From NCBI GenBank assembly GCA_001687465.1, contig LVLI01000338.1:1-64000 (forward strand): DNA of 64,000 nucleotides, given 5' to 3'. Origin of the DNA: Halocafeteria seosinensis. Lineage: Eukaryota. Positions 19,853 to 62,000 of the stretch are shown piece by piece. A program made the position numbers and the translations under genes. How positions within the stretch are numbered: the stretch's first letter is position 1; every line of letters starts with the position of its first letter. The notes under the pieces are model-generated. The model was not told the origin of the DNA. It searched no databases and saw only the letters and a list, made by a program, of their open reading frames with translations.

Positions 19853-20264
19853 TGTTCCAAATCAGTCGTCCGGGAGACCATATAGCAATGGCATTGCAGC
19901 GAAGTAACGACGTTTGAAAGTATCACGTATGGAACCATTAAGGTCTATTCTATGTCTGAGTACGCGGTTCGTTGATAAAATCATAATGCTTAAATCAAGC
20001 CATGGTTTGGGTGTCGTTGTGCGTGATTAGGACTTGACATGACTTTCTTCTAAGATAAGATAATCTCTCTAGCTACAGTCGTATCCAGAAAATCCAGGCC
20101 AGCATGTGCATAGATTATCTTTTCCACATTGCCCATGTCCCGAACATGAGCTTGCTGCGTGACAATGCGAAGATACAGTCCTTTAAAGACAACTTCAAGA
20201 TTGTACTTCAGAAGCTGTTTCTGAGCCTGACGGGTAACTCCGCTCGCATGTCCATACACTTTCA

Positions 20265-20645
20265 CACAATTCGGGAAATCTGAGTGATATAAAATGACAT
20301 TTGTATCATCACAATGGCAAACAAATATGGGACGATGAACTATGTGCCGTACAAGACACTGAAAGTTTGCCAATGCTCCGCTTTCAGCTACCAAGTCCAA
20401 CTCCAAGCCCAAGCTCCAGTCCTTCAGTGACTGGAAACGTGACAACCGCCTCTACTTCCACAGTCTCTAGCTCAGTCACGCTATCCTACTCCGGGACTCT
20501 ATCCCTTCGACTTCACCCAGTCTGTCGGGTTCGTCATCGTCACCCCGTCACTCAGTTCAAGCGGTTTCACGAGATACGACGCTCCAGGAGCATCACACGG
20601 GGTCTGACAAACACGCGTCAGCTCGGAGTCTGTCATCAAAGCTAG
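20265..20645 (+). pseudogene. Fragment: ectodomain C-cap plus start of stalk
   Basis: NSGNLSDIK*HLYHHNGKQIWDDELCAVQDTESLPMLRFQLPSPTPSP matches SGNLDDIRGQLYHHGGVQQWDNEAWAVNGRDALPILRFQL of member E. TGA replaces the conserved Gly. Confidence 0.85.
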
Positions 20646-21872: not shown

Positions 21873-24800
21873 TCATCGATTTCCTCTGTGCCGGCGAGCG
21901 AAACGTTGCCGCCGTAACTCTGAAAGAGTAGTCTTGCTTTTCGTGGCTACCTGAAGCACGCTTGGGCCAGTCGGAGCAATATGATTTAGCGATTGTGGCC
22001 GTGATCCTCTTTTCTTGGAGTTTTCAGTTGAGGTGTCGGAAGGAAGTACTGGAGTAAATTCTTTCCTCCAATGACTTCTTGGGTTCGACACGCGGCGATG
22101 GTCTTTGGCTTCGCGTGATAGCACGTCCCTCATACTGCCTTGGTGTCGGCGCCTCTTCGCTCTCTCGGAGAGAGGGTGAATGACTCCCTTTTGAATTTTG
22201 CCTCTAACTTGTCTGCTCTGAGGAGACGTCACCCCTAGTCCTCCTTGTTGATGACCATGCTTTGCTTGGTTGGCTGACAGCATTCTTAAGTTGGATCCCT
22301 TTGCTGCGGCGAATGCCAGTGTGCTCGCTTGAGAAGTACCTGAAGAGCCAACCCGATTAAACGAGGAACGACCTCTTGGAGCTGCTCTTTCACTGGATTT
22401 ATTGTCCTCTCCAGTGTCGACAGTAACCAATGGGGGAGGCTCAGCGAGAAGTTTTGCCTTCCACTGCCTCAATTTAAGCCTCGTTTTGTCTGCACTGCGC
22501 ATGTCCGCTGTATTGATTTGGCTAACCAGCGCCACCTGCACGGGTTCATGACTTGCACTATGTTTTGTCGCCGAGTCCAGCTTTGGTGCTGTTACTGATA
22601 CCACACGGACACTATCAGCAGCCGAAGAGGCACCCGACGTATACCCACAGAGGTCCACAAATAACACTAGCGGACTGCTTCCCGGGGAATTAGCAGCGAC
22701 TGCCGTATTTGCATTCATTTTGTCTATTCGTGTCTCACCTGAGCATGCCCTGGTTCTTGTAACACTCCGCTGCACCGCTCTTCGTTGTGAAAGTGCAAAG
22801 GCATCTGATGTTTGTTTTTGATCACCATCGTTCAAGGGATTGATACACGTCGCCTTGTTTGCTGGGTTTGCCAAAGGATTGACATTAACAAGCCCACTTT
22901 CTCCAATAGCGGCTTTGGACTTGACTTCTGAACTCTGTTTAGCTTCCAAGGCGCCAATCGGCGTTGCCAAGAAACTGCTGTGTTGGCTACCATCTGCTTG
23001 CATTTCTTTAAAGCCCCCCAGTGCCGTAGACTGTTGTATACTTGAGGACAGCTTGAAGCTTTCCACAGGTATCCCCAGCTGAGCTGCATATAAGTGTCGA
23101 GGGTCAGTGGTATCCCGTGCCATACTCGTATTTCGTCGCCTCTTAAAGACAATCAAAATAAGAATCACTAGCAGTAGCATAGAGAACACGGAAATCATCG
23201 CAACTTGAGCTGGTACCGGCACTAGCTCAGCCTGCTGTGACGACACACTACTGAGAACCTCAGTTTCCGTCGAAGCAGTGGGTGTAGGTGAACTTGACTC
23301 AGCCACTGTTCCATTACCATGCGGGGCTGAACCACTAGCAAGAATCGGAGAAGGACTGCTTGTTAGGTTGGAGGCGCTTCCGTTAGCAAGGGAAGAAGAC
23401 GTATTGGCTGAAGACGCTGTAGGAGAAACCGTCGTCGATACTCTTATACCAAGATGTTTCGATGCACTGGGATGGCTAAAAGCCGATGCCCCCATCAAGT
23501 CCGACTGTACAGGTGCAGCAGTAAAGGAAGAGTTTCCAGCAACGACTGCTGCACTCTTTGTGGCATTAATGCTCCAAACGAGCATCGCAGAAGTGTTGAA
23601 ATTTGCTCCAGAGGGTGCTGGACTTACATGAGCAGAAAACCCTGACGGTGATGCAGACGCACCGGCTGGACTGTCTAATGAGACAGTTTCAACTGGGTCG
23701 GCACTTTTTCCGGTTGTGTTGCTATCTAAACCTGATGAGCTTTCATTAAAGGCGCTAGCAGTTGCGACAGTTCCAGTTCTCGAAACCTTGGGTGTTTGCA
23801 TGATCAATTCACTACTTGATGACCCTGATGATTCGTTGATCGAGCTCAATGAATCATTGGGAGATTGAGAAGGCCTCACTAGATCAACCCTGCTACTGGT
23901 AGCCGCGCTGCTGAGAGGAGTCCAAATAGACTCCGGATATGCAGTACGTTGTACTAGAGAATGGGTACTTGCGATACTCGTTATTGCTTCAGTTGCATTT
24001 GCCCTTCTTGTCGAAGTTGGGCTAACCGTGCTTGAATCCGCTGAGGCCGAGGATGACGCAGCCGTCATTGGTGTGTTGGACCTGCTGACAAAACGATGCA
24101 TAGTACTGTTGTTGCTTTGGAAAGTGAAGGAAGCGTGAGTCGGCGTTGGACTTCCTGCTCTTGAAGAAGAACTGGTAGACGAACTTGGCACACTCTCGAG
24201 AGGGGTGCTTGATGTGGACGGCGTGCTCGCGAGAGTTGAGCTTCTGGATACCGTATCGGAAATTGATGCGTTTGAAGAAGGTGAGCTAAAGCTAGTATTA
24301 GACGCTGGACTCGTAGCAGCAGCAGCTGTATCGCCTGGCATAGTAGAAACAATATCACTGAAGTTTGATGATGTCGCAATACTAAAGCCAAAGGTTGCCA
24401 CAGTGGGGCCAAAAGCGGTCGGAATAATGGAGATCGATGGGGAAATGCTGCGAGGGCTGCTCGTCGAAGCAGTACCGCTGCTGGTGCTAGACCGAGTTTC
24501 AGTCGGTATGTCCATGCTAGATACTAACGGAGGCGAGTAAATCACAGAGGATGAGACAGTTGATATCCGTGACCCTGACGGGGTTATAGTTGGTGAACTA
24601 GTTTCCGATTGCTCCGCCGTAGGACTAGCCGCTTTGGCAGTTGAATGCGTCGGTGAGTCGGACGGATCCCTAGAGCTAGTTGTTGAGAATGAAGCAGATG
24701 AGCTTTCTGCTGTTGCCGCACTGGTGCTTTGTGAGACAGGTATCGAGTTAGCGGAAGTAGCTGAGGCACTCATTGTCCATAGCATATCTGATTTTGTAGA

Positions 24801-42487: not shown

Positions 42488-45400
42488 TTGAGACTACCCC
42501 GGCGAACAGAAGCATTCCGAGAACGGTTAAAGCGGACGAAATCTAGTAGCCCCACAACGATCTCAGTTTCCATCCTGTTGATACGCACAATACAGCTAAG
42601 CGTTTCTATCATGAAGCTGAGCATTGCTTACTGGGCACCTGCGGAGACTCACAAGGGGAACGAATCCCACCATGTACCACCGACAGGATACAAGAGGAGG
42701 AAACCGGATACAGTTCATTCCGGTATGACGGATTTGGGGCGAGTCGTCATAAGTATTAGTTTGTTTACCGTGCTTGTCAAGGAGGCAGCGGGAGCGAATG
42801 TTGACTTGCGAGCCAATATCCAAGAGGGGAAGGAGCCTTGTTTTCAGTATTTCCCCAATAAGAATCTGTTTCGAATGAACTGTAGCATTCTCAATTGGGA
42901 AGAACAAGGTTACGGTGATGATACTCATATTTCACTTGAAGTGAAAGAGACATTTGATGGTGGTGGTAGCCAAGGAAACATAATTGATTTGAAAGGCATT
43001 GAAGACTTCTACGGGTTGTTTACGGTTGCGAAAGATGGAGAGAACATTGCGTCCTTGAATGAAGCTCCCTTGATCCGCCATGTTCATGTCAAGCACGGGA
43101 CAACTGCGTCCTCTGGAGGATTTGTTATTCGAAAATACCAGAAGTATTTTATCGTCGATTCATGTAGCGCTACAGGCGATATAACGGATAGTGCTGGTGG
43201 TATATGTGGTCATATGGTGGGCCACAATGAGGGGCATATCAAGATATCACATTCCTACTCAACAGGAACGATAAAGGGCAGTTTGGCAGGTGGTATCACC
43301 GGGGACGATACCGGATACGATCATGGAACTGTCAATATCACGCAATGTTACTCCACTGGAACTATTAAAGGGGGCAAATCAGGTGGTACATGTGGACGGG
43401 ATGCCGCTCGTGCTCACGGTCATGTGTATATCACACAGTCATATTCGACGGGAAATATTATTGGGAGCCACAGCGGTGGTATTGTCGGAGATGATGTAGC
43501 ACACGAGTATGGGGACTTACATATTATCGATTGTTATACCCGAGGAAATATTCGTGGTTCCTTGGCCGGAGGAATCACTGGGGAAAGCGCTGGGGGCTAC
43601 AACGATGTTCAGGAAGCTACAGGTGATATATACATTATTAACACGTATGCGTCTGGTGCAGTGAATAGAGACGATGCTGGTGGGCTCATTGGTGATATCG
43701 ACGGATCAACACGTGGTGTTATCAAAGTGCACTATTCGGTATACAATGATAGAGGTGGTGCGGGCCAAATCGTTGGAAGAAACCAGGGGAATGTTCTCGA
43801 AACGGTAGGCATTTCAGGCAATTTAGATGATATAAGAGGTCAACTCTATCATCACGGAGGGGTCCAGCAGTGGGACAATGAGGCATGGGCTGTCAATGGA
43901 CGTGATGCTCTGCCCATTCTTCGTTTCCAGCTAGTGGATCCAACCCCAACCCCAAGTCCATCGACGACTTCCGCGGCAACCCCCACTCCATCTACAACAC
44001 CGTCAAAGACGTCTACTCTCTCAAGTTCTCCCTCTAGATCAGTTACGCCGACACCATCTTTCAGCCCCACCACAAGTGCTTCAAGCTCGAAAACCCCATC
44101 GGCTAGTGTTTCGCCCTCCCAGACTCCTACATCAACAGCAACGCCGAGCCCTACGGCTTCTTTATCGACTACGCCTTCTAGTTCCAGTTCTCGAACGGAA
44201 ACGAGGACGTCTTCTGTCAGTGGAAGTTCTACCGCTTCCACTTCGACGACTGGTACACCTTCTGGGTCAACGTCTATGACGCCGAGTTGGACCCCGACTC
44301 GCAGCCCCCCGAGTTTATGTTCTTGTACAAGCACTCCCTCGTCCTCAAGCTCAGAAACCGTTACCTTGACTTTGACTCCGTGCCCAACAAGATCCACCGC
44401 GCTGACACCAAGCACGCCCACTTCTCCGACAACTAGTGCAAGCCGCAGTTCCATACACCCACTGCCGAAAACCCAGGATGGGAAATCCGCTAATGCAGGC
44501 CCTGTAATGCCAGGAGTGGCCCAATGGGCTGTGATTTCCGCCGTGAGCGTGATTATTTCTATGGCTGTGGCATTCATTCTCTACCGGCGATCAAGAAATC
44601 GCAATATGTCCAAGTTTACCGACGATCCGAAAAAAGTGTATGCTGCCCAGTTAGGTATACCCTCGAAAAATGTCAAAGTGATGTTTCCTGACAGAGATGG
44701 AAACGCTGCATTCCATATTCACTCTCTGAGTGTTGATGATGAAAATATGGAACTCGCTCATGTCAACCCCCTGAACTTACCGACAAATCGTGGGGAGTCT
44801 TCTTCAGGCCAATCCAATCCGTCATCCGTAAATACTCGACCGTCTCAAACCCAGTTCTCCTATCAGTCCCACACCGTGGCTCCAACGGTAAATAGTGGTG
44901 AAGCACCTGTGACGGTGGCCAATGGAGCAAAAACATTGGGGAGGGCTTCAGTGGAGCCTCCCCAAATAGTCTTTGTGGAACCTCGCGGTCAATCACTGAG
45001 CTCACACAGAGTTCGCATCGTTTCTTCCGCTGCGCCGAGTATTCAGCGTGTCCATAGAACAAGATCTCGAGGCGAATCGTGTCAAGTAAAGGTTGCTTCC
45101 ATAGTTGACCTTGACACCACGTCCATGAAGCGAATAGAACGTCTTAGACTGCGGTTGAGGCAATGGAAGTCAAAGGTGCTTGCTGAGCCTCCGCCTCTTG
45201 TCGAACTGGAAGTAGACAGTGTATCCTCTGAAACGAACAGCGGGGAGCTGTCCAGTAACGCTGCTGCCAGTTCTGACTCCGGTAGTGGTATCGCTCAATT
45301 GAAGTTTGCAAAACCTGATGTCCATGCCGCACGAAACACCCTTTCCGAAGAGACAAAGAACGACCGTTGCCGGCAACCTAGGATTGGTTCGATTGGTAAG

Positions 45401-45505
45401 AAAGAATTTACTCCAGTGCCTTCTCAAACCTCGCGTTCCTCGGCGAGGAGTGGTTTTACATCTGTCAAGCAGAAGGCTGCTGGCTCGCGCCGAGGAAAGA
45501 CGTGA
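42488..45505 (+). CDS. Family member E: one GLUG-like module, stalk, TM, conserved tail (start uncertain: ATG 42611 or 42725)
   Basis: VVISISLFTVLVKEAAGA|NVDLRANIQEGKEPCF, ETFDGGGSQGNIIDL and GGIxG repeats. TM WAVISAVSVIISMAVAFILY-RR. Tail VYAAQLGIP, HVNPL, RLRLRQWKSKVLAEPPPLVELEV, KKEFTP. Confidence 0.9.
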   Translation: MRLPRRTEAFRERLKRTKSSSPTTISVSILLIRTIQLSVSIMKLSIAYWAPAETHKGNESHHVPPTGYKRRKPDTVHSGMTDLGRVVISISLFTVLVKEAAGANVDLRANIQEGKEPCFQYFPNKNLFRMNCSILNWEEQGYGDDTHISLEVKETFDGGGSQGNIIDLKGIEDFYGLFTVAKDGENIASLNEAPLIRHVHVKHGTTASSGGFVIRKYQKYFIVDSCSATGDITDSAGGICGHMVGHNEGHIKISHSYSTGTIKGSLAGGITGDDTGYDHGTVNITQCYSTGTIKGGKSGGTCGRDAARAHGHVYITQSYSTGNIIGSHSGGIVGDDVAHEYGDLHIIDCYTRGNIRGSLAGGITGESAGGYNDVQEATGDIYIINTYASGAVNRDDAGGLIGDIDGSTRGVIKVHYSVYNDRGGAGQIVGRNQGNVLETVGISGNLDDIRGQLYHHGGVQQWDNEAWAVNGRDALPILRFQLVDPTPTPSPSTTSAATPTPSTTPSKTSTLSSSPSRSVTPTPSFSPTTSASSSKTPSASVSPSQTPTSTATPSPTASLSTTPSSSSSRTETRTSSVSGSSTASTSTTGTPSGSTSMTPSWTPTRSPPSLCSCTSTPSSSSSETVTLTLTPCPTRSTALTPSTPTSPTTSASRSSIHPLPKTQDGKSANAGPVMPGVAQWAVISAVSVIISMAVAFILYRRSRNRNMSKFTDDPKKVYAAQLGIPSKNVKVMFPDRDGNAAFHIHSLSVDDENMELAHVNPLNLPTNRGESSSGQSNPSSVNTRPSQTQFSYQSHTVAPTVNSGEAPVTVANGAKTLGRASVEPPQIVFVEPRGQSLSSHRVRIVSSAAPSIQRVHRTRSRGESCQVKVASIVDLDTTSMKRIERLRLRLRQWKSKVLAEPPPLVELEVDSVSSETNSGELSSNAAASSDSGSGIAQLKFAKPDVHAARNTLSEETKNDRCRQPRIGSIGKKEFTPVPSQTSRSSARSGFTSVKQKAAGSRRGKT

Positions 45506-45960
45506 AAAGGTGAGTCCCGTGGTCATGCAGGGTCTACTAGACAAGCGGATATGCTCTTACCCATTGCAGGTAGTTTTTAACACTGTTACTATTTGCTCTT
45601 CAACACACAACTCTATTTGATTACGGAGCAGCAACATCATGTTTAGTCGTTGCAACTTGCACGACGATGGTTAAGCATGTCAGCCTCGTACGTTCACGTG
45701 TACGTTGACATGCGCGTATACATATTCCTGGTTGCTAAAGGAATTGTTTGGTTCGATGCTGCTTCCTACGGACTACATGCAATACAGTAGAGATGCCTTT
45801 GGTTTCCCCCCATGATCACTGTTGCATACCTACCTTTGAGCAGCTACATGTATTTTGCTGATGAGCGTTGTACTTTGCTAAGCATGGTCGAAGTGAACAT
45901 CCAAGACTCAAGAACCGTGAGTATCCTGTAAGATCTGAAAATTGCCGAACGACGCAATGA

Positions 45961-47067
45961 CAGTCGTCCGACCCAACGGCAGCCAGCTCAACTCCAAGTG
46001 CCACCTCGACATCGACACCGAGTTCCACCTCGACGTCGACACCGACGTCTACATGGACGCCATCGCAGACACCTCCAAAGACATCTACCTCCTCGAGCTC
46101 TCCGTCTACAACGGTCACTCGAACAGCATCTTGGAGTGCAACACTGAGCTCCTCCGAGACACCATCTGGAACTGTTTTAGTTCCCAAAACTCCAAGATCT
46201 ACGATAACTACGAGTCCCTCAACAAGTTTCTCCAGTTCGATGACCATTTCACCGTCACGCTCAACATCGGGAACTACGGACAACACTGCTTCTACCAGTG
46301 TAAGCCTTACTTTGGCCACCGTTACGCTGTCGGGGTCAACGTCTGGGACAACTACATCCGCTGCGAGTTGCTCTGGTTCGGTGACGCCTTCCCTATCTTC
46401 GAGAACAAACTATATTGCGATGCATGCATCCCGCACTGGCGCGTCAAACAATTCAGACCCTATGGTGTCAGGAGTTGCTGAAGTGACTTTAACTTCCATA
46501 GTGAGCTGTATGGCCCTCCTGGCCTTAGCATTTATTCTCTCCCGGCGATCAAAGAATCGCAATATGTCCAAGCATGTCGACGATCCGAAAGTACTGTACG
46601 CAGCCCAGTTAGGTATATCCTTGAGCACAGTAAAAGTGATGTTCCCCGACACAGATGGAAACGCTGCATTCCAGATTCATCCTGTGAATGCTGATGACAA
46701 ACCTACGGAAGTAGCTCATGTGAACCTTCTACACCTTTGGGAAAAATCGTGCAAATCCTTCTCCAGACCGGTCGATTCCGTCGAACATTATACTAGAACA
46801 ACTGAAAACCAGTCCTTAGATCAAGCCCAGATTGTAGCTCCAACTTTAGATAGCGGTGGAAGAGAAACGGCAATCTCGGCGAAAGGAGCAGAGAGATCGA
46901 GGTCGGCTTCACTGGAAACTCCCACAGTCATCTTCGTGGAACGCAACGCTGAACCATTGAGCTTAGACGAAGTCCGAATTGTATCTACGGCTGCGCCAAA
47001 TTTGCAGCGAATTGATAAAACAGAATCTTCCGGCAAAACGGCATCACACTGTTGTCTCACCGGTTAG
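45961..47067 (+). pseudogene. Ectodomain-less stalk-TM-partial tail fragment (mosaic of E-like and F-like sequence)
   Basis: Open from a TGA at 45958 (QSSDPTAASSTPSA..TWTPSQTP) to a stop at 47067. It has a TM, LYAAQLGIS and VRIVSTAAPNLQR but lacks the LRQWK..EPPP block. Confidence 0.8.
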
Positions 47068-47122
47068 TCAGGCTTCTATTGGTGCTACTATCCACATTAT
47101 TCGGCACACCGCAGTTAGCCCT

Positions 47123-50100
47123 ATGATTCACTGCCGTTCGGGACGAGTTTTCGTAGTCAACAGAGAGATGAGCCGTTTGGTGTTAACCACTGAACCGCTC
47201 CCAGCAAATTGCGCTTTCCGAAACAGTACCCCGTCTGGAATGAAACCTTGTTTTCCGTATTTTCCTAATGGCAAGTTATTCCAAACGACGCGTACTGTTC
47301 TCCGGCTGGAGGCACATAATTACGAAGCTGATATTTCCTTTGACGCAAAGAAGGCTTTTGATGATGGCAAGGGCATAGAAAATATCATTGACTTGAAGGA
47401 CTTGCCGAGAGGGTCTAGTGAATGGTTATCCGCAGAAGCAGATAAAGCGTTGAGCGCAGGTCCGCAGGGTAGCTCTGCCGCAGGAAGAAATGTATTGAGT
47501 ACAGCGTCCATAGGTAAAGTGATGGCATTTCCTTCTATGTCTGTTGCATATACGTCTGGCGATTGGTCCTTTATTTCTTCGGAGGGTGAATCGCACTACG
47601 CGGCTCACTCATTCCCGGTGGTATATCCTCTGTTGATACTGTTATCAACATTATTCTGCGCCGCACAGTTGGCTAATATTTTGATCATGAGCTGTGTCGA
47701 CTACAACTACCACCATCAATACCGGTCATCGTCAGCGTCAGCGAATGAACTCGGAATTGAATCCCGCTGGAAGGGGATGGTCGGTCGAGGCATTGATAGG
47801 ATTTCTTCGAGCAGCAAGAAGTTGAAACGACGAAAAATCCGGTCATACATGTATTCCACAAAAAGTATCATACAGACGCTCTTGTGCCTTAGCACTCTGT
47901 CGATCTGGGTATGGAACCCTGTGGATGCAAATGATTTGTACAAGGATATTGTTGATGGGGAAGGAGCTTGTCTCCAGCAGGTACTCATTGACCATCTGTT
48001 CACCCACCTCAAGTGGGAGGACCAAAAGTACGATGCTGACACTCAGGTGTCCGTGAAGATAGGCGAGACATCTGATGGGGATGGTCGCGTAGGAAATCTT
48101 ATTGGCTTAGGCGAGAATTTGCTGCACTATTTCAAGGCCACATTGTTGCTTCCTGAGGCACGTCTTGCCGTTGAAAACGATGTGCGTACCAGAGAGTCTC
48201 TTTCGGCAGGTACAGGTATTCATTATGGTACATGCTCTTCACGAGGAGGCAGGGCCATCCCTGTGCCTCAAATTGGAATGGGAGTCATTCTTAGTGCAGC
48301 ATACCTATTCATTTCCGCTACTATTCTACTGGATGGCTACCCGAAAGAGTCAGGCCCTCGCTGTGTGGGTGACTACCATCGAACGTCACCCAGTATCTGC
48401 TTGTATGGTAAAGAAGAGGAGATTAGTGGTTTGAACTTAGTTTGCAGCGGGAAACGGAGACGAAGTAAACTCCAAGCTCGCCAAATGGCTGTTGAATCAA
48501 TCGTTATATATTTCACCACGTTGGCAGCTATGTTGATACTCCCCGGGAAATCGCTCGCTCAAGACTCCGATGATTTGCGAGACAGTATCGTAGACGGCAA
48601 TGAAACTTGTTTCCAGTATTTCCCCGCTGACAATCTCTTTCGGATGACCTGCACTGTGCTCAACTGGAACACCAGCTACAGCAATGACGATGACCACACC
48701 CACATTACGCTTAAGGCGAAAGAGACATTTGATGGTGGTGGTCGTGAAGGAAATATCATTGAGTTGGGGGACACTCAAAGCTTCCCTGGATTATTCCGGG
48801 GTGATAATGACATCGGATCTTTGGATGAGGCTCCGTTGATTCGAAATGTCCATGTCAAGAATGGGAAAACTGCATTTGCAGGTGGATTTATTGTTCAACA
48901 AGATCAAAAGTATTTTGTCGTGGATTCATGTAGCTCAACAGGAGAGATCACGGCTGAGCATGCTGGTGGTATATGTGGTAAGGCGGGTGGCGACGGAGGC
49001 CACATTACAATATCGAATTCCTATTCGACAGGGACAATACAGGGTGGATTTGCAGGTGGTATCGCAGGAGGAGGTGTAGGATCCTATAGTGGGACTGTGA
49101 ATATCACCCAATGTTATTCCACTGGGACAATCCGGGGATACTCAGCAGGTGGTATCTGTGGGGACAATGCTGGTCATGAGAAAGGTCTCGTGTATATCAC
49201 GCAATCGTATTCCACAGGAACTATTCCGGGGGACCATAGTGGTGGAATTACTGGATATGCTCCAGCGCTTAATGATGGTGAAGTACATATACAAGATTGC
49301 TATACGCGAGGACATATTGCGGGTGATACAGCAGGAGGGATTGCTGGGGCATACAGAGAAACAGGCAAAGTATACATAACAAATACGTATGCTTCCGGTA
49401 TCGTCCACCATCAAAATAGTGGTGGAATCATTGGAGAGATAAATGATATTGCAAATGGTGTCCTCAACGTAAAATATTCGGTGTATAATGGCTCGAATGG
49501 GGCCCCTTTGGTCAGAGACGACAACTCCCACGAGGGTGTCTTGAACACGACAGGCATTTCAAACACTTTGGATGATATACAGGGTCAACTGTATCATTTT
49601 AAGGGCGTCCAGAAATGGGATAATGAAATCTGGGCTCTCAATGGCGCGGATACTCTGCCCATTTTGCGCTTTCAATTGATGCAACCACTCGAGCCTGTTG
49701 CAACTGTGGAGCCAAGTCCTTGTGTTGAAGCCCAACCGACATCCCAACGGACACAATTATCGCCCGCAACTCCGGCAGGTACTCCCTCTTCGCCTTCCGC
49801 TCCTGCTGACTTGCGAAGTAGGATCCAAAATGGGAACGAGCGTTGTTTTCAGTATTTGCCCGACGAAAGTCTTTTTCGAATGACGTGTACTGTTCTCAAG
49901 TGGGAAACCAGTAGGTACGATAGGAACACGCACATTAAGCTCAAGGTAAATGAGACATTTGATGGTGGTGGTCGCAACGGAAATATCATTGAGTTGGGGC
50001 ACACTCACGACTTACTTGGATTATTCCGGGTTGAAAATGATGGTGATGACATTGAGTCATTGGATGAAGCTCCGTTGATTCAGAATGTCAATGTCAAGAA

Positions 50101-52963
50101 TGGGCGCATTGCAGAAGGTGGTGGGTTTATTGTTCGAGAAGACCAAAAATATTTTATCGTGGACTCGTGTAGCTCTACAGGGTTGGTCACTAAGCATTAT
50201 GCTGGTGGTATATGTGGTCGTCATGCGGGTCGCAACGGAGGCCACATTAAGATATCGAATTCCCACTCTACAGGGGCAATACAGGGTAAACATGCAGCTG
50301 GTATCGCAGGAGGAGGTGTAGGATCCCACAGTGGGACTGTGAATATCACCCAATGTTATTCCACTGGGACAATTGGAGGAACTCATTCAGGTGGTATCTG
50401 TGGGGATAATGCTGGTCATACGAATGGTCTCGTGTATATCACGCAATCATATTCCACAGGAACTATCGACGGGAAACAGAGTGGTGGAATTACTGGATAT
50501 GCTCCAGCGCTTAATGATGGTGAAGTACATATACGAGATTGCTATACGCGAGGAAATATTGCGGGCGATACAGCAGGAGGGATTACTGGGGCATACACAG
50601 GAACAGGCAAAGTATACATAACAAATACGTATGCTTCCGGTATTGTCCACCATCAAAATAGTGGTGGAATCATTGGAGAGATAAATGATATTGCAAATGG
50701 TGTCATCAACGTAAAATATTCGGTGTATAATGGCTCGAATGGGGCCCCTATGGTCAGAGACGACAACTCCCACGAGGGTGGCTTGAACACGACAGGCATT
50801 TCAAACACTTTGAATGATATACAGGGTCAACTGTATCAGTATAATGGCGTCCAAAAATGGGATAATGAAATCTGGGCTCTCAGTGGCACTGATACTCTGC
50901 CCATTTTGCGCTTTCAGTTGTCCCAATCGTCAAGGGAGCCGAGCTCAACTCCAAGCGCCATGCCGACACCGACGCCGACATGGACGCCGTCTGAGACACC
51001 TCGAAGAACTCCTACTTCATCGAGCTCATCGTCCACCACAGTCACTCCTACATCGTCTTGGAGTGCAACACCGAGCTCCTCCACATCTATAACGCCGTCT
51101 GAGACACCTCCAAGAACCCCGACTTCGTCGAGCTCATCGTCCACCACAGTCACTCCTACACGATCTTGGAGTGCAACACCGAGTTCCTCCACATCTATTA
51201 CACCTTCCGGAACCGCTTCGCTTTCGAAAACTCCAACATCAGCGAGAACTCAGAGTCCCACAACGAGTGTTTCGAGCTCCATGACTGTTTCTATGACTAT
51301 TTCGCCGTCCAGCTCGACGTCGCGAAGTCGGTCGGCGAAAACTCATTCTGCCACTAAAAGTCCTACTGAATCCAGCTCAACCACGTCCACACCATCGAGC
51401 TCAGGTTCTGGAACGGTTACCTTTACAACGAGTTTCTCTAGTTCGATAGCGCCCTCCGTAGCTACGAATGCAAGCTTTACTCCGAACATTCCACCTCAAG
51501 ACTCTCCTGCTGACGTGTCAAAGAATTCAGACCCAATAATGTCCGGAGTGGCCCAAGTCGGTTTGTCGTCCGCGGTGTGTTGCATGGCACTCATTGCTCT
51601 GATTTTCATTGTATACCGGCGCCGAAGGAACAGCTATATGACCAAGCGGGCTGATGACCCGAAGGAAGTGTATGCAGCTCAGTTAGGAATACCCTTGGAT
51701 AATGTCAAAGTTATGTCACAGGGAAAACATGGCGGTGGCAATTTTCAGATCCACACCCTTGGTGCTAGCTTCAGCCGTGCGGATGCATCCGTCTCAGAGC
51801 ATGGGGAAAACAAGGAAGCACATATACTCTCCAAAAATCCAGATGGTGAAATGATGGAGGTAGCTCATGTAAATCCTTTGGATTCCTCGCAAAAGCAGGC
51901 AGAATATCACGATTCACCTTCCTGGGATCAGCACAATATATCTGAGAAATTCTCCCTCAATAAGGGAACTGTTCACCGAAGAGACCTACGCAGAATCGAT
52001 GAGTGCAATGCTAGAGTGGCCAAAGATGACGCGAGCACGGCCTATGCGACCGTTGCTGAGGGTGCAAGTAATGGGATCGAAAAGCTAGGAGCTAGCAACT
52101 TTGCTGCTGAGGAACAAGCAACAAGTTCCATCGTCACTCAGAATGAGAATTTATCCGAATTCGAGCTGGCCAATATCAACCCACTGGCTTCCACTGCACA
52201 GCGGCAACAACCTCAACACGAAAGGGGATTCTCCGATCCAGCCCAGTATACATCTCAAATGTTCTCGCTGGCGCAGAAGCAAGCTCATCGCAGAGCCGTT
52301 GGACAAGATGCGACGCCACATGTAGATGCTGGTGTTGTCCAACCTGGTGCACTGATAGCTGGCGAAGTGTCATCTCCGTCGACTTCAGTGGGCAAACCCC
52401 AAGTGATGTTCGTGGAACCAGGCGCACAGAAAGCGTCGACGGATAAAGTTCGAATCGTTTCCGCTGCTCCGCCAAACCTGCAACGTGCTGATAAAACGAA
52501 GTCCCACGATGGGACATCCGTGGTTAAGGTTGCTTCAGTAGTGGATCTTGATACCTCGGAGATGAAACGCATCGACCGTATGCGGCTTCAGCTGAGGCAA
52601 TGGAAGGCTAGGCTGCTGGCGGAACCCCCACCTCTTGTCGAAGTGGAAGTGAACGATTCATCGTCTGCACAAAGTAGCGCAGGGCTCTGGAAAACGACCG
52701 CTGCTAATCGGGACTGTGGTTCCAGTACAGCTGTTGCTCAACTGGATTTTGCGAAGAGGGATATTCATAACACACGAAGCATGCTCTCTCAAGAGGCGAA
52801 GCAACACCGCCGCCGTAAATTTGAGATTGGGTATGTGTCGAAAAAGGAATTTGCCCCTTCATTGCCTTCGCAAAATTCTAGTGCTTTGGGACGAAGCGTC
52901 TCTTCGTTTTCCGGGAAGAAAACTGTCGCCGTTGGCTCACGTCGAGCTCGTAGTAGGCGTTAG
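47123..52963 (+). CDS. Family member F: long multi-hydrophobic leader, 2 recently duplicated GLUG-like modules, stalk, TM, conserved tail (alternative start ATG 48485)
   Basis: First in-frame ATG is 47123 (frame open from 46979). SIVIYFTTLAAMLILPGKSLA|QDSDDLRDSI precedes two modules. TM VGLSSAVCCMALIALIFIVY-RRRR. Tail MKRIDRMRLQLRQWKARLLAEPPPLVEVEV, KKEFAP. Confidence 0.9.
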   Translation: MIHCRSGRVFVVNREMSRLVLTTEPLPANCAFRNSTPSGMKPCFPYFPNGKLFQTTRTVLRLEAHNYEADISFDAKKAFDDGKGIENIIDLKDLPRGSSEWLSAEADKALSAGPQGSSAAGRNVLSTASIGKVMAFPSMSVAYTSGDWSFISSEGESHYAAHSFPVVYPLLILLSTLFCAAQLANILIMSCVDYNYHHQYRSSSASANELGIESRWKGMVGRGIDRISSSSKKLKRRKIRSYMYSTKSIIQTLLCLSTLSIWVWNPVDANDLYKDIVDGEGACLQQVLIDHLFTHLKWEDQKYDADTQVSVKIGETSDGDGRVGNLIGLGENLLHYFKATLLLPEARLAVENDVRTRESLSAGTGIHYGTCSSRGGRAIPVPQIGMGVILSAAYLFISATILLDGYPKESGPRCVGDYHRTSPSICLYGKEEEISGLNLVCSGKRRRSKLQARQMAVESIVIYFTTLAAMLILPGKSLAQDSDDLRDSIVDGNETCFQYFPADNLFRMTCTVLNWNTSYSNDDDHTHITLKAKETFDGGGREGNIIELGDTQSFPGLFRGDNDIGSLDEAPLIRNVHVKNGKTAFAGGFIVQQDQKYFVVDSCSSTGEITAEHAGGICGKAGGDGGHITISNSYSTGTIQGGFAGGIAGGGVGSYSGTVNITQCYSTGTIRGYSAGGICGDNAGHEKGLVYITQSYSTGTIPGDHSGGITGYAPALNDGEVHIQDCYTRGHIAGDTAGGIAGAYRETGKVYITNTYASGIVHHQNSGGIIGEINDIANGVLNVKYSVYNGSNGAPLVRDDNSHEGVLNTTGISNTLDDIQGQLYHFKGVQKWDNEIWALNGADTLPILRFQLMQPLEPVATVEPSPCVEAQPTSQRTQLSPATPAGTPSSPSAPADLRSRIQNGNERCFQYLPDESLFRMTCTVLKWETSRYDRNTHIKLKVNETFDGGGRNGNIIELGHTHDLLGLFRVENDGDDIESLDEAPLIQNVNVKNGRIAEGGGFIVREDQKYFIVDSCSSTGLVTKHYAGGICGRHAGRNGGHIKISNSHSTGAIQGKHAAGIAGGGVGSHSGTVNITQCYSTGTIGGTHSGGICGDNAGHTNGLVYITQSYSTGTIDGKQSGGITGYAPALNDGEVHIRDCYTRGNIAGDTAGGITGAYTGTGKVYITNTYASGIVHHQNSGGIIGEINDIANGVINVKYSVYNGSNGAPMVRDDNSHEGGLNTTGISNTLNDIQGQLYQYNGVQKWDNEIWALSGTDTLPILRFQLSQSSREPSSTPSAMPTPTPTWTPSETPRRTPTSSSSSSTTVTPTSSWSATPSSSTSITPSETPPRTPTSSSSSSTTVTPTRSWSATPSSSTSITPSGTASLSKTPTSARTQSPTTSVSSSMTVSMTISPSSSTSRSRSAKTHSATKSPTESSSTTSTPSSSGSGTVTFTTSFSSSIAPSVATNASFTPNIPPQDSPADVSKNSDPIMSGVAQVGLSSAVCCMALIALIFIVYRRRRNSYMTKRADDPKEVYAAQLGIPLDNVKVMSQGKHGGGNFQIHTLGASFSRADASVSEHGENKEAHILSKNPDGEMMEVAHVNPLDSSQKQAEYHDSPSWDQHNISEKFSLNKGTVHRRDLRRIDECNARVAKDDASTAYATVAEGASNGIEKLGASNFAAEEQATSSIVTQNENLSEFELANINPLASTAQRQQPQHERGFSDPAQYTSQMFSLAQKQAHRRAVGQDATPHVDAGVVQPGALIAGEVSSPSTSVGKPQVMFVEPGAQKASTDKVRIVSAAPPNLQRADKTKSHDGTSVVKVASVVDLDTSEMKRIDRMRLQLRQWKARLLAEPPPLVEVEVNDSSSAQSSAGLWKTTAANRDCGSSTAVAQLDFAKRDIHNTRSMLSQEAKQHRRRKFEIGYVSKKEFAPSLPSQNSSALGRSVSSFSGKKTVAVGSRRARSRR
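48570..50920 (+). repeat. Tandem duplication of the ectodomain module (period ~1240 bp)
   Basis: 49060-49680 is nearly identical to 50300-50920, including long identical runs such as acaggcaaagtatacataacaaatacgtatgcttccggtat. Confidence 0.95.
50984..51205 (+). repeat. 108-bp (36 aa) x2 stalk repeat
   Basis: acgccgtctgagacacctc at 50984 and 51092. Confidence 0.85.
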
Positions 52964-53439
52964 CTGAACTGGCTGACACCAGCCCACTCAAGGTCGTTTT
53001 TCATTTGCAAGAGGCTCAGCAAGGAGGGGAAGCCGCCAGTCTAGCCCAACTCATGTCCCTGACATTCTCATTGAAGGACCGTCGGCTTTGGTACCCAGGA
53101 TCGTAGTACAAACGAGAATGAAGACAGAATCGTGTGCATGCTCAGCGAAGATTTTCAGGCAACGTTCGAATTGGTTCCACTGTGCCTACGTTTGCAGCGT
53201 GTAAGGAAAATGAAGTCTCAGAACGAACTTGTCTTCTCCTGCGGGGTGCATTGTATTCACCACTTTAGCATCTATCGTGTACTGGGGGCGATTGAACAGC
53301 CATATGGTGCAACAAGGGGATCCTGTATGTAGAGATGTACTCCAAGGGTATGGGTAGTGAACTGCAAGTGTACACCCGCTGGATTCTCAGCCGAGCGCAG
53401 AACACGGCGAAAACGTGTAATCAACATATTATCCTGTCA

Positions 53440-54190
53440 GTTGGATAAAGGGCTATCCGATATAGAGCTGGCTAGCATTTATTCACCCTATGGTATGTCA
53501 AATTTACACCAAGCTCAGTACGAGAGCAGAGTGGAGAGGCAAGCCTCACCTTCAGGTCGGGATACATCTCAACCTACTCGCTGGCGAAGAACCATGTACC
53601 TAGAAGTTTACCTGGTAATGATTCGAAGCCATGCGTAAGCCGTAGTATAGTACAAGGCGGTACACCGGCAGATGTTGTAGAGGAGGCAAAGCGGCAGAGA
53701 GGAGTCTCCAAGTTGTCCTCGTGGAACCTGGCTCCCAAGCTACCTCTGCAGATAAAATCCGAATCATTTCCGCTTATATGCACGATGGAGGTAACACTAA
53801 GTCCGCAATGGAACCAGGGTTTAATGTTGCCGCTGTAGTTGATCTTGATACAGCGGAAATGAAACGCATCAACCGTAGGAGGCTGCAAGGCTTCTCGCGG
53901 AACTGTTATCTCTAGTGAAGTTCGAAGTAGATGGAAATCGCAAGAAGGACTGCTCCTAGTTCAACATATTCTATTGCTAGCAGTGGAGCTGTCGCTCAAA
54001 TAGGCCTTGCGAAACAGAAACCTCGTCGGAAGCATGACATTGGGTATGCGCCGAAGAAGGAATTTGCTCCTCGGTTACCTGCACGGAGCCCCCATTCCGG
54101 ACACAGCCTCTCGATAGTCCCCAAGAAAAACAACGGCAAAGTCTCGTCGTGAACGTGATAGGAATCGAGCCGCAAGAGGTCGAAAACTGT
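53440..54190 (+). pseudogene. Degraded tandem copy of the member F cytoplasmic tail
   Basis: LSDIELASI, VEPGSQATSADKIRIISA, VAAVVDLDTAEMKRINRRRL, then a frameshifting deletion, RLLAELLSLVKFEV, AVAQIGLAK..DIGYAPKKEFAPRLP. Confidence 0.85.
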
Positions 54191-56865: not shown

Positions 56866-57640
56866 TTCCAAAAGCATACGGCCAATGACCCAAACTACAA
56901 GGACAATGGAGAAGACCTCAATTGGGATGACAAGCATGTAAAAGGCATTGCGAATGCATTGCAGGTCGATATTGCATTGAGGAATATTGATTTAAACAAT
57001 GGGTAATCACCGATAGTGGTGCTCAATATTTGGCGAATGCCCTGAGGGAAATGCTCCAGCATCACCTCTTTTATTGCGGACACACTCAGTCAACTGCGCA
57101 ATTTACTGTCGTTGTTGCTGTCAGACTGAAGACTTAAACCAGTGAGTGACAGCAAACCAACTTCTTGTCGCACGACCCACGGCAGCATGCCCATTCTCGT
57201 GAACCAGGCAGCTAATACGCTTCATAGGTTCGTATCAGAAGGACCAATAGCACAAGCTTCTCCTGCAAACTACCGGTATGTACAAGATGCCCCAAATTGA
57301 ACTGGTCTTGAGCGTCGCACGAAACCAACCCCCCATAGTATCGTGATCCCACTCAAAGGATATTCTACTTGGCTGTACATTGTGACGTCTACGGGTTGGT
57401 CACAACTACAGCACACGACGGACCTCCTATGCCTGCCTGCACAGTTCTCCGTGCAACTGTGAACGAACTCGGTTCTTCAGTTTCGCCATCCTATGCATCC
57501 CGTCCCATCTCCATCTCCTGCTGCTCCCTGCGATCACGATGACCAACTTTGGCTCCCTGAATCTTGCTGGTACATACATTCAGGCAAAGACCCTCAAGAA
57601 GCTCTATAGAAGGGACAATCACTTCTTTCGCATAGTTTTC
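56866..57640 (+). pseudogene. Remnant of an RNI-like (NLRC3/tropomodulin-type) leucine-rich-repeat gene
   Basis: ANDPNYK..WDDKHVKGIANALQVDIALRNIDLNNG then, after a frameshift, ITDSGAQYLANALRE. Later SLNLAGTYIQAKTLKKLYRRDN. Confidence 0.6.
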
Positions 57641-58019
57641 GAGCGCTCCAGTCTTTACAACACGTTGTCTCACTGCAGCACATATGATAAAAAGACTATT
57701 AGAAACGTCATGCTAAATGGACCGAGAAATTCATCATGCGTTGCGCGGAACCGACGCCGTTGACGCAACGTTTCGGAAGCTCCCGTTCCATACGCGGATA
57801 CGAGAGAATAAATTTAGGATCTTCTCTGAATATGCTCACGGTGAACAAACGTTCTACAGTCTACCTTCTGATAGTGCGCCGTTCAGCCTACTTGGTGTTT
57901 TGGGAGTGATCAACGATTCATTGGGAGCAAGTCCCGATTTGACTTGCAGAATCGAAGCATCTCAGCAAGATGGCTTCCAGTTTCTCGCCAAAGAAGAGCT
58001 GTTTGCGACAAACCATGCT

Positions 58020-58620
58020 TTTCCTAAGATCCACTGTCCTTCGAGACGAGTTTTCCTGTTCGCCAGAGAGATGATCCTTTTGGCGGTCACCACTAAACCG
58101 CTCTCAACAAACTGCGATTTAGACAGTGGTATCCCGTCTGTAACGAACCCAGTTTACAGTATTTTCCTAATGAGAAGTTTTTTCAAACGGCGGGTACTGT
58201 TCCCGGTCTCAGGACCGACTTGAAGGACGGACCGGAAGAGTCTAGCAAATGGTTATCCGTTGTAGGACGAAAGATATTGAGCACAGTTGCTAGAGCAACC
58301 TGATGGCATTCCTTTCTAAGTGTGTTGCCGATATGTCTGGCAATTGCTCCTCCACTTCGGACGAAGGCGGGCTTCACTCACCCCGGGTGGTATACCCTCT
58401 CTTGATATTGTTGTCAGCAAAACTCTGCGCCGCACAGCTGGCTAATACTTTGGTCAAGGGTCCTGTCGGTTACAGCTACCGGCCACCATTAGGGAATGAT
58501 TCTACATTAACTGAAATCGGAATTAAACGCCACTGGCAGGGGACGGTTGGTCAAGGGCCAGTGCGTAGAACGTGCCATGTCGGTCCGATTATAGGCGTCG
58601 CAGGGCGGACAATAAGAAAG
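58020..58620 (+). pseudogene. Frameshifted paralogue of the member F leader (47115-47800)
   Basis: PKIHCPSRRVFLFAREMILLAVTTKPL vs PMIHCRSGRVFVVNREMSRLVLTTEPL; VVYPLLILLSAKLCAAQLANTL vs VVYPLLILLSTLFCAAQLANIL; EIGIKRHWQGTVGQG vs ELGIESRWKGMVGRG. Confidence 0.85.
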
Positions 58621-59046: not shown

Positions 59047-62000
59047 TCATTCCCAGACGGAAAACGGGTGTTCTTCATGACGCTTCAGCTGGTGACGCCG
59101 CATGTAGATCAATTGTGGGTTGTGATACAGAGTCACTGCAAGCCAGCACTTTGCTCGGAGCCGTTGCATGTTACTGTTCTTGTAGGCTCGTTTCGATATG
59201 CGTAATGGACCCTCAGACTCCAATGGTTTCTCAGCCATGGGATTCGTTCGTGGGGTGGAATCTTCGAGGCGCTTCTTCCGTTGCGCCTTGATATCTTCCC
59301 AGAGTGAGGAACATAAGACCATCACAATTGGGTTATTATGAAGATAGTCTATTAAGAGCATACTTCTGAAACTGTTATAAGCACCATCCAACGCAGCGAA
59401 CTTAGCCGGAAGTTTAGTATCATCAATTCGAAGGAATTCTCCCAAACCGAAGACAAAATGAATCTGCAAAGTGGTAAAAGGAGAGCCGGTCAAGAGTTGA
59501 AATAAGTAGTACCGCACCCGCGGTTGAAATAACAACCTTACTTACAGTAAACCTTGCTAAGACCATACTTAGACCTGTCACCAAAGCAGTCATTGAGTGG
59601 ACAACGTCGAACACCGAAAACAACCTCCGGTGTCGGATAACATTGCCGTTTATAATAAAACGAACGAGAATTAGCGATAAAATAGTATTCATCGCCGTTG
59701 TTGCTCCAACAAATCCGGTAAAATACTGAACCCACGGCTCGTTGCGAAGAAGACCCAGTTTTGGGTGCAGCAATATAGTCAGAACTGCTACCACCAAGGA
59801 AGTGAGAACGGTTATTCCTGTAGTTGCAAATGCTGCATGCCATACTTGCTGGGCAATAAACTGCGTGCTTTTAGCTAAGGACTGGTACTTGTTTATGGTT
59901 GAGAATCCATCACGACCACGCAGAACCGTCTGCCGATACCTGTAGAAGAAGGAGCTCCATATTCCGGCATTGGTTAATACTGCAAAGAACGCTCCAAATC
60001 CTACTCCGACATACACTCCCAACTTTATAATTTCAACCCCTTGATCTATAGTCAAACCGCTACTTTGGATTGTTTGAATAAACGTAGATGCTGCTGGTAG
60101 TCTGCGTGCAATTGCGGTCTTACCCTCCTCCTCCAGACGACTAAGTTGCTCTCTCACAGCAGCGTTATCCATCGCTACATTCGCCGCCTGCTGAATTATT
60201 TCCATGTCAACAGAACTTGCAGCCAGACCTGAAGCTTCAGCGGAAGCAGCATGAAGAGCTGCTTTTCCTTGGTCCAGTTCAAATGCGATGTGTCGGGAAA
60301 CAGCAATGCCTGTTAAAATAACTAACATAGTCAAAACAATGCTCATTCCCAGACTAACCAGTAAGCGCTGCGGGAAGAAAAAGTCTGTTTTAGTTTCATA
60401 CAGTTCGTGTTTCCGAGCTGGTGCAGTTTTTGCCAGCATGAATTTGTAGTACTTCTCTAAGAAAAACCCTTTAAGAATGTCGCAGGTACCTGCACTTTTT
60501 CTGTCGTATAACTGGTGCAAATTGCGTTCAATTGCACTCCTCTTCTTGTCAATTCTTCGCGCTTTCTTCAGGAACTCCATTTCCACGGCCTGAGCATGCT
60601 GTGATAGGGTACGTCCAGAAATCTCCGATAGTGAGTAGGATTCTGGTTGCAGAATGTATTCGGCGCGCGCTGGATCAGCTCTCTCCCATTGCGTTTGGTG
60701 CAGTAAAACTGACATAACATAATGCCGTCTGGCATTGCTCACCCTGTTCATCAAATAGAAGTCGTTGTAACGGCCGTCTGGCTCCCGTAACTCAGGGGGT
60801 ACGTTAGCAGCGTCGAGCAATTCCTCTCGAAACTTTCGAAGCGTGTGATAATTTTCCGTGAATCGCTTACGTCCTAGAGAGAGCAAACGGTGAACAAGAT
60901 ATTTAGAGTAGAGTAATCTTCTTCGATAGTAGGTGATGTTGTGGGCCACCCCAAGGTAACACCTCAAGGGGACTAGCGGGACACCATTTTCATTCAGTAG
61001 GATTGCAGTGCCCTTTTCACGCATCGTTCGTTTTGGAAACGTCAAACCACTTTCGGCCTCCGTATAGCTCCGACGAATACACAGTACCACAGAGAGACAC
61101 TTGAGCACTATAGGGAAACAGCAGCAACAACATCCACGACGAGGTTTCTTTCCGCTGCTCACAGCGTCTGCTTTTGTAACCAAGTACTCCATCACCACCA
61201 CGCGAATATAAAGATACATGGCAAATAACGCACAAACCACTGCAGAAGTGATAACCGTCCCAAAGAATGGGTCTGGGTATGACAGATATCGCGCTTGCTC
61301 CGCCAAGAACGTGAATCCTGCCAATGCTAAAACAAGGAAAATAAACATGGACCAGAATGAGGCGCAAGTCATAGCGCACTTGGGGTTTCTCGTGTTGTTT
61401 CCTACTAGAAGAGGTAGAGAAAATATCAGACCGCCTACTACAAACTGCCACCAGTTTTCTAGGCCCCTCTGATTAATTTCCACTGGATTCACAAGAGTAA
61501 CGGGGACAACCCTACTTCGTACGCCCTGAATAACGAAACGAAGGGTATATGCCCCACTACTTCCAGCAATGAAACGTAAATTATCAAATGAAGCGACACC
61601 GTCTTTCCCGACAATAGCGGTGTTGCCAGCTAGCACTGCAAAACCACTCTCATCGTCATCCAACATTGCAGTTGCAACGGCGCTGGCGAAGGCGGGATTA
61701 GCCTTCTGAGTTCCACCGCGTAACGTCCCACCTACTCTAATTGGATCCTCCATGGGGCTATTCAGGAACACTTCACTAGCAACTTTCTCGTTGAGAACGT
61801 TGGTTTCTTCTATGAGAGTCTCAACTTTAAACGGAGTAGAAGGTTTGCTGCTGGCTCCAGATACTGTAAAAAATGCAAAGGAATAGTTTCCTCGGCCACC
61901 AGAAATTAGAATGGGATTAAAGATGGCAATTCCATCCTTTTCCGTATCCTGGGCAATAATGGAGGGGGCAATCTGTCCTCTGCGGTAGTCTTCTCTCTTT

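Follow-up and report, generated by a model that had tools for sequence, protein, structure and literature searches.

The locus examined here raises the question of why the gene for a predicted membrane receptor should be preceded, in its own reading frame, by a long stop-free leader built of receptor fragments, and whether this leader is translated together with the receptor. The whole stretch of DNA analysed (64,000 nucleotides, hereafter the window) is intron-poor eukaryotic DNA with about 48% GC, and contains a cluster of related surface-protein genes (ORFs 5475, 10686, 21873 on the minus strand, 42488, 46967, and 54430 on the minus strand), as well as broken copies. The product of ORF 54430 is 99.3% identical to the EukProt protein P0004 (TSA GECG01), and thus the window and this transcriptome, which we take to be that of the bicosoecid Halocafeteria seosinensis, are likely conspecific. 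H. seosinensis appears to be culturable. The accessible part of a genome preprint for this species gives a GC content of 46.8% and an apparent diploidy (10.64898/2026.06.25.734631), in agreement with the window data, and the organism appears to be diploid. Many species-specific duplications are reported in the accessible text of another article, where the word GLUG is never used (PMC5447177). Exact matching of 10 window translations retrieved no identical protein, and a literature search, mostly in open-access sources, found neither the family nor the leader layout described. DNA-level comparisons of the family cover the copies present within the 64-kb window.

The receptor is predicted to be a type I membrane protein, with a signal peptide, two beta-solenoid ectodomains, a stalk, an anchor and a tail. 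A Pfam scan of the 1946-aa protein gave no match. Modelling of an intact ectodomain with an alignment of 58 sequences yields a confident beta-rich repeat (pLDDT 96), whose closest solved structure by profile is PDB 3n6z (E 2.3e-7), a GLUG/IgA1-protease-like beta-solenoid from Bacteroides ovatus (BACOVA_03286). This structure is also the best match in a fold search, in which the resemblance is weak and partial (E 9.3e-4, TM 0.38-0.41); unlike 3n6z, the protist proteins have an additional stalk, an anchor and a long tail. Pfam GLUG (PF07581) scores 14 bits in one paralog, under its curated cut-off of 20.5 bits, and is not found in the leader-bearing protein. The parts of the open frame, and a related segment further downstream, are the following:

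46967..52963, plus strand: whole open frame, from stop to stop, 1998 codons (translation)
47074..47118, plus strand: out-of-frame H1-like hydrophobic relic (33/45 nt identical to H1 DNA; 0/300 shuffles match the score)
47114..47118, no strand: 5-nt repeat at the junction of a heterozygous deletion (bridge depth, loose ends on both sides)
47123..47215, plus strand: first ATG of the window allele and decayed signal-peptide relic, hydrophobicity gone (alignments, 10-residue hydropathy 0.93)
47216..47404, plus strand: ectodomain relic 1, in frame, lacking the conserved Cys30 (columns 5-71 of the 376 in the profile)
47618..47689, plus strand: H1, predicted stop-transfer anchor (19-residue hydropathy 2.23)
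47816..47842, plus strand: basic cluster 1, predicted to be cytosolic (positive-inside rule)
47849..47929, plus strand: H2, signal-like internal segment that has an ATG of its own and small residues at -3/-1 (putative cleavage)
47927..48250, plus strand: ectodomain relic 2, containing indels that keep the frame and with Cys30 deleted (47927-48112 corresponds to profile columns 2-69)
48278..48331, plus strand: H3, predicted anchor with an in-frame ATG at its start (19-residue hydropathy 2.07)
48380..48484, plus strand: loop, with basic cluster 2 at 48452-48469 (in-frame alignment to the N-terminus of the transcript-derived paralog P0001)
48485..48559, plus strand: H4, classical signal peptide of the intact receptor (hydropathy; putative cleavage site)
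48569..49681, plus strand: intact ectodomain 1, predicted beta-solenoid (model mean pLDDT 96)
49805..50926, plus strand: intact ectodomain 2 (79% identity to ectodomain 1)
50930..51544, plus strand: Ser/Thr/Pro-rich stalk (translation)
51545..51616, plus strand: C-terminal transmembrane anchor with basic residues after it (sequence inspection)
51617..52963, plus strand: cytoplasmic tail of about 450 aa, common to the paralogs, without Pfam match (comparison, Pfam)
57343..58618, plus strand: heterozygous 1276-nt segment with a frameshifted dead copy (58023-58556) of the 5' half of the leader

The original prediction, that no stop occurs between ATG 47123 and ATG 48485, is borne out: these 454 codons (47123-48484) are open and in frame with the real signal peptide, the frame stays open for 52 further codons 5' of ATG 47123, and the remaining five frames contain 14-32 stops each. 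The hallmarks of a pseudogene, stops or frameshifts relative to the intact paralogs, were found neither in the 454 codons nor among 19 allelic SNPs, whereas dead copies in the neighbourhood do carry frameshifts. That this openness exceeds chance stands; the probability first attached to it (about 3e-10) assumed random DNA and does not. A null model taken from the intergenic DNA of the window (944 stops in 24,088 codons) gives a P of 1.3e-8 for an open leader, the longest intergenic open run being 194 codons among 980 runs, and even this overstates the case, since the leader originated as coding DNA. The fairer null of decaying coding sequence leads to 3-8 expected stops if 0.05-0.15 neutral substitutions per site are assumed, with P from 0.07 to 0.0003. 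A codon-usage score ranks the leader frame first of six, yet it has little power, since a real gene scored negative. The leader is real and more than chance, and its layout is recurrent in the family.

Two truncated ectodomain starts had been proposed inside the leader, and the family profile recovers both as relics, at 47216-47404 (E 1e-4) and 47927-48112 (E 1e-3); from 48112 to about 48250 the similarity of the second to the family ectodomain is weaker. The motifs that had been quoted, including KKLKRRKIR and KRRRSK, are all found in the translation, and hydropathy and charge counts reproduce the proposed order, in which a hydrophobic segment, a basic cluster and then a signal-like segment come after each relic. 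The relics are about 40% identical to the intact copies and are still in frame via small in-frame indels. Against intact paralogs, both show a pS (0.18-0.32) above pN (0.10-0.14) in 3/3 comparisons, and profile alignment finds the conserved Cys30 in neither of them. Relic 1 contains a single sequon. The best 19-residue hydropathy reaches 2.23 in H1, 2.07 in H3 and 2.02 in H4; H2, a shorter segment, scores 1.87 over 15 residues and 1.38 over 19, and falls under the 19-residue threshold. An in-frame ATG lies at or just before each of H2, H3 and H4. Moreover, H4 aligns to the N-terminal signal position of short-leader paralogs, and both H2 and H4 have small residues at -3/-1 immediately before an ectodomain start. 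Homology of H1 and H3 to the C-terminal anchor of the family was at chance in 4/4 DNA comparisons, and these two anchors resemble pieces of the hydrophobic N-terminal extension that is often seen in the family. Searches for leader homologs over lengths of 470-3406 aa gave no match, and a length-free search returned four family members only, with no protein matching the whole leader. An Atlas search with the H1-H2 extension gave leads under 0.9 only, two metagenome scans did not find a related locus, and folding the leader and ectodomain together from the single sequence gave no informative model (pLDDT 35).

The stretch is present in four coded runs (X1-X4) belonging to one study. Introns at 59464-59545 (X2-X4, 3/3) and 45508-45567 (X2, X3) are skipped in these runs and retained in X1, so that X2-X4, although none of the four runs is registered as RNA, are taken as RNA-like and X1 as DNA-like. 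Since the runs are possibly the window's own source, the comparison that they allow is one of alleles, not of strains. In X1, a single contig without gaps runs over 47119-48499 at depth 104. Both alleles have an open leader, with 19 listed SNPs, 0 indels and 0 stops; one more leader difference, in an X3 contig, lies outside these 19. The one leader codon hit by two SNPs gives no stop with either change or with both combined. The listed SNPs comprise 11 synonymous and 8 non-synonymous changes, an excess of the former with P 0.018 in a permutation matched for type of change, which becomes 0.053 with one synonymous site fewer; after post hoc removal of a 5-SNP cluster, the remaining 14 SNPs give P 0.004. 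Counted per codon, 10/18 are synonymous (P 0.003-0.019), while the same SNPs read in the other five frames yield 5-8 synonymous changes. All five SNPs at 47495-47822, before H1 and in the H1-H2 loop, are synonymous. This test is based on 19 sites, which come from a single study with no more than 3 samples. Elsewhere, synonymous changes among the listed SNPs amount to 4/14 in the signal and ectodomain start, 2/5 in stalk and tail, and at least 2 of at least 4 in gene 42488, and the test is therefore without a positive control, the intact coding parts showing no synonymous excess among their few listed SNPs. The allelic synonymous signal is moderate. The SNP pattern of the window resembles a mosaic of two alleles.

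A second comparison points the other way. Between the leader at 47120-47790 and the dead copy at 58 kb, pS is 0.149 and pN 0.143, and because the two are equal the 5' half of the leader appears to be free of amino-acid constraint; the substitution pattern is neutral against the dead copy, yet synonymous-biased between alleles. For about 100 codons 5' of the point that matches the deletion junction, the frame of the 58 kb copy is free of stops.

This junction bears on where the precursor would begin. In X1, the window form of the junction at 47118/47119 has a depth of 42, versus 101-104 on its flanks, and the alternative allele is longer at this point by about 0.96-1 kb or more. ATG 47123 lies only 4 nt 3' of the heterozygous deletion. 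One loose end prolongs the similarity of 47074-47118 to H1-coding DNA, and the opposite one matches DNA upstream of the 58 kb copy; both matches stand out against 3759 background windows. Given these matches to paralogous DNA of the window, the longer allele probably represents the ancestral state, with the window allele derived from it by deletion. The right-hand loose end does not match the 58 kb copy itself, and a search of the window with a 20-nt pattern found no match. A transposon insertion at 47118 was also considered, and is rejected because of the matches of both loose ends to paralogous window DNA. The longer allele is readable for 30 nt on each side of the junction, and the 30 letters before 47114 on it form 10 sense codons in the leader frame. 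RNA-like contigs extend 832-960 letters into its extra DNA, and among the records shown no contig crosses the deleted junction in X2 (3/3) or X4 (6/6), while the X3 depth at 47125-47189 equals that of the long-allele contig alone (8/15 records shown). On the window allele, no usable signal peptide follows ATG 47123 (best 10-residue hydropathy 0.93). The original prediction of a precursor starting at 47123 with the topology drawn from there is therefore not supported, for want of a usable first signal and in view of the longer allele, and ATG 47123 is probably not the true start. This start is likely to be further upstream, because the signal relic after ATG 47123 has lost its hydrophobicity and it is the longer allele that gives rise to the RNA-like contigs at the junction. 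That allele likely carries the first signal, and hence the window allele is probably a 5'-truncated version.

With regard to transcription, one RNA-like contig in X2 spans 47114-48740; it has no splice within the leader and continues into the longer allele. The cover in X3 extends over 47114-47494 and 47607-48499, interrupted at 47495-47606, and both alleles are seen there at 48470-48723; X4 leaves most of the leader without cover. The contigs are unstranded and mosaic, and show neither strand, start, level nor single molecules. Those over 51202-53884 are deeper than those of the leader, a difference that does not rank gene parts. A minus-strand intron (CT..AC, 46991-47060) lies next door, in one X3 contig at depth 5.9. 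In scanning initiation, the ribosome meets upstream ATGs first, and the leader has 27 ATGs ahead of 48485, of which 18 are out of frame. Therefore, if a plus-strand mRNA includes the leader and scanning holds, only in-frame translation would yield the receptor. The proposal that the leader is translated is thus probably right, considering the allelic synonymous excess, the unspliced RNA-like contig and the 27 upstream ATGs, with the plus strand of the RNA entering as a presumption.

The layout is found again in the family. The length-free search recovered P0121, a complete ORF of 2430 aa on one assembled TSA transcript, in which a weakly hydrophobic N-terminus is followed by a hydrophobic segment at 215, a basic stretch, a hydrophobic segment at 272 and a decayed ectodomain at 294-673, and then by a hydrophobic segment at 713, a basic loop, a signal at 767, and three intact ectodomains plus part of a fourth. 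Its first ectodomain keeps 55/74 conserved columns and 2/4 cysteines, versus 67-71 of 75 columns and 4/4 cysteines in the three intact ones that were scored. P0121 is thus open for about 790 codons before its first intact ectodomain, and the anchor/basic loop/signal arrangement that had been described for the leader is also predicted in it from hydropathy and charge (for both proteins, the topology comes from simple hydropathy scales and charge counts). Its loops have no detectable homology to those of the window leader, which suggests a separate origin.

Among 24 TSA family proteins, 23 with an ectodomain start were counted, and 7/23 have in-frame extensions of at least 75 aa beyond the signal, versus a background of 4.8% (47/980 runs; P 7e-5); these extensions contain 8 extra hydrophobic segments where 1.8 are expected (P 6e-4). 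Both statistics are to be read knowing that paralogs are not independent and that ORF callers favour upstream ATGs. Such extensions are also present in 12 of 39 other hits, three of which (P0066, P0091 and P0100) are possibly unrelated proteins that carry N-terminal domains. In some extensions the number of hydrophobic segments detected is even, which a simple alternation does not fit, and no similarity is detectable between extensions of different paralogs, save that of the leader with P0001 and a weak match of P0003. P0001 starts within the last loop of the leader, aligned in frame. One allele of paralog 42488 has a 13-nt deletion that shifts the frame of its shorter upstream extension, which for this reason looks dispensable; the TSA protein P0122 represents the intact form.

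Taking these data together, it is proposed, with a probability of about 0.52, that the leader consists of the decayed 5' ends of two sister genes, translated with the receptor as a multi-pass precursor cut by signal peptidase. This proposal draws on a frame open on both alleles, the homology of the relics, the synonymous excess, the RNA-like cover and the layout of P0121. Tandem duplication and deletion in the cluster would have left upstream copies that retained a hydrophobic extension, a signal and an ectodomain start. An mRNA starting upstream would give the receptor only if the relics remain open and thread correctly through the membrane: relic 1 would be lumenal, H1 would act as an anchor, the basic loop would be cytosolic, and H2 would be a cut signal; relic 2 would again be lumenal, followed by H3 as an anchor, a second cytosolic basic loop and H4 as a cut signal, releasing the mature type I receptor. 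What selection would chiefly preserve is the frame, together with anchors and signals, rather than functional small products, and the relic ectodomains would likely be passengers that are degraded.

It is less probable that the leader is an untranslated relic, the mRNA starting within or after it and translation beginning at ATG 48278 or 48485, so that its openness would reflect recent coding ancestry and its RNA would be antisense or read-through. The equality of pN and pS against the dead copy fits this explanation, as do the ATGs at or just before H2, H3 and H4, the antisense splicing nearby, the extension-breaking allele in paralog 42488 and a P0001 that begins inside the last loop; however, it has to account for the synonymous excess between alleles, a frame kept at only about 40% identity to the intact copies, and the 790 open codons of P0121. 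Of another kind is the doubt about whether the pieces have a job of their own, as in the original idea of a polyprotein. Signal peptidase would then free small anchored peptides (relic, anchor and loop) serving as decoys, chaperones or co-receptors, comparable to the small products of viral glycoprotein precursors. The five synonymous SNPs at 47495-47822, the conservation of the last loop in P0001 and the family-wide enrichment of extra hydrophobic segments would agree with such a role, which we nevertheless regard as improbable, since paralog extensions lack detectable similarity apart from P0001 and weakly P0003, the 5' half has equal pN and pS, the conserved cysteines are lost from the relics and no homolog of the whole leader came out of the searches; that the released pieces are functional products is thus not supported.

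The same doubt attaches to a broader version, in which the family would routinely make signal-peptidase polyproteins, paralogs fusing and decaying stepwise from a near-whole ectodomain (P0121) through short relics (the leader) to bare anchor/signal stacks (ORF 5475 and others), and freed peptides being kept as receptor partners. If the leader were translated and left uncut, H2 and H4 would remain as transmembrane helices and the receptor would be tethered at both ends. The dynamic integration of closely spaced signals, described in the accessible part of one study (PMC2174215), lends this some plausibility, but the position of H4 at the signal of short-leader paralogs and the small residues at -3/-1 of H2 and H4 before ectodomain starts make it highly improbable. 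An assembly artefact is scarcely credible: the window does look like a two-allele mosaic, but the gap-free X1 contig at 47119-48499 bridges the junction, and none of the 19 SNPs creates a stop.

The proposed multi-pass precursor can be set beside known systems. Internal signals cut by signal peptidase are known mainly from viral precursors. Nuclear tandem polyproteins of Euglena and dinoflagellates (light-harvesting proteins) arise by intragenic tandem duplication and have several copies per ORF, but their units are intact, plastid-targeted and split at linkers rather than at internal ER signals, whereas the upstream units of the leader are relics. Long or two-domain signal peptides have an extended hydrophobic N-terminal region ahead of the cleavage site, and the leader differs from them in its length of at least 454 aa, its several hydrophobic segments and its ectodomain relics. 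Bunyavirus glycoprotein precursors, according to the accessible part of the source, have N-terminal and internal signals cut by cellular signal peptidase (PMC7926653), and as described there they resemble the leader in being one ORF with internal signal peptides, with a fitting order of anchor, basic loop and signal. Unlike these precursors, the leader belongs to a cellular gene in which decayed paralogs of the final product make up the upstream units, the window allele is without a first signal, and cleavage is predicted only. Because the released units do not look functional and the cleavage is a prediction, the leader is not filed here as a viral-type signal-peptidase polyprotein.

For annotation, the consequence would be that gene callers set the starts of this receptor family inconsistently. 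Should the proposed precursor prove true, a cellular family would be repeatedly reaching this layout by tandem duplication, with dying copies as a source of multi-pass precursors and long leaders, and selection would act on frame and topology, not on sequence.

Another receptor-family paralog has a leader at 5475-6920 (+), open in frame with the gene over some 480 codons. This leader holds three strong hydrophobic segments and no detectable ectodomain relic, and it has possibly decayed further along the path proposed for the leader at 47123-48484, in which in-frame upstream paralogs degrade to relics. A dead copy of the 5' half of the 47123-48484 leader lies inside a heterozygous 1276-nt indel at 57343-58618, together with an open frame of 168 codons (57717-58223); the indel shows in all four sequencing runs (X1-X4; X1 behaves as DNA, X2-X4 are inferred to be RNA). 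Other dead copies of the family are found in the following positions.

Dead family copies, frameshifted or fragmentary
3189-3929, minus strand
20250-20390, plus strand
53700-54150, plus strand

Immediately upstream of the leader, the region 45568-47118 includes a decayed fragment with stalk, anchor and tail (45961-47067). RNA-like contigs covering it run on into the longer allele, the haplotype with about 0.96 kb or more of extra DNA at 47118, and a minus-strand intron (46991-47060) in one X3 contig suggests an antisense transcript from this region.

Alleles also differ over the receptor signal and the start of the ectodomain (48500-48693): this stretch of roughly 200 nt has 14 variable sites, of which 10 are non-synonymous, and a 9-nt in-frame indel; diversifying selection or gene conversion may be responsible for this divergence. 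In gene 42488, a family paralog, a 13-nt deletion allele at 42707, found in X1, X2 and X3, frameshifts the in-frame extension between ATG 42611 and ATG 42725, the TSA family protein P0122 having the undeleted form. Directly 3' of the stop codon of this gene there is a GT..AG intron (45508-45567), spliced in X2 and X3.

In the family member 10686-19706 (+), of 3006 codons, two ectodomains and a repeat stalk are joined to further domains and, near the C-terminus, to several hydrophobic segments; its protein has no match in Pfam. Conserved blocks are common to the cytoplasmic tails of the paralogs (1144-2220, 22224-23250, 44585-45500 and 51620-52960) and have no match in Pfam; they constitute a candidate for an undescribed signalling module.
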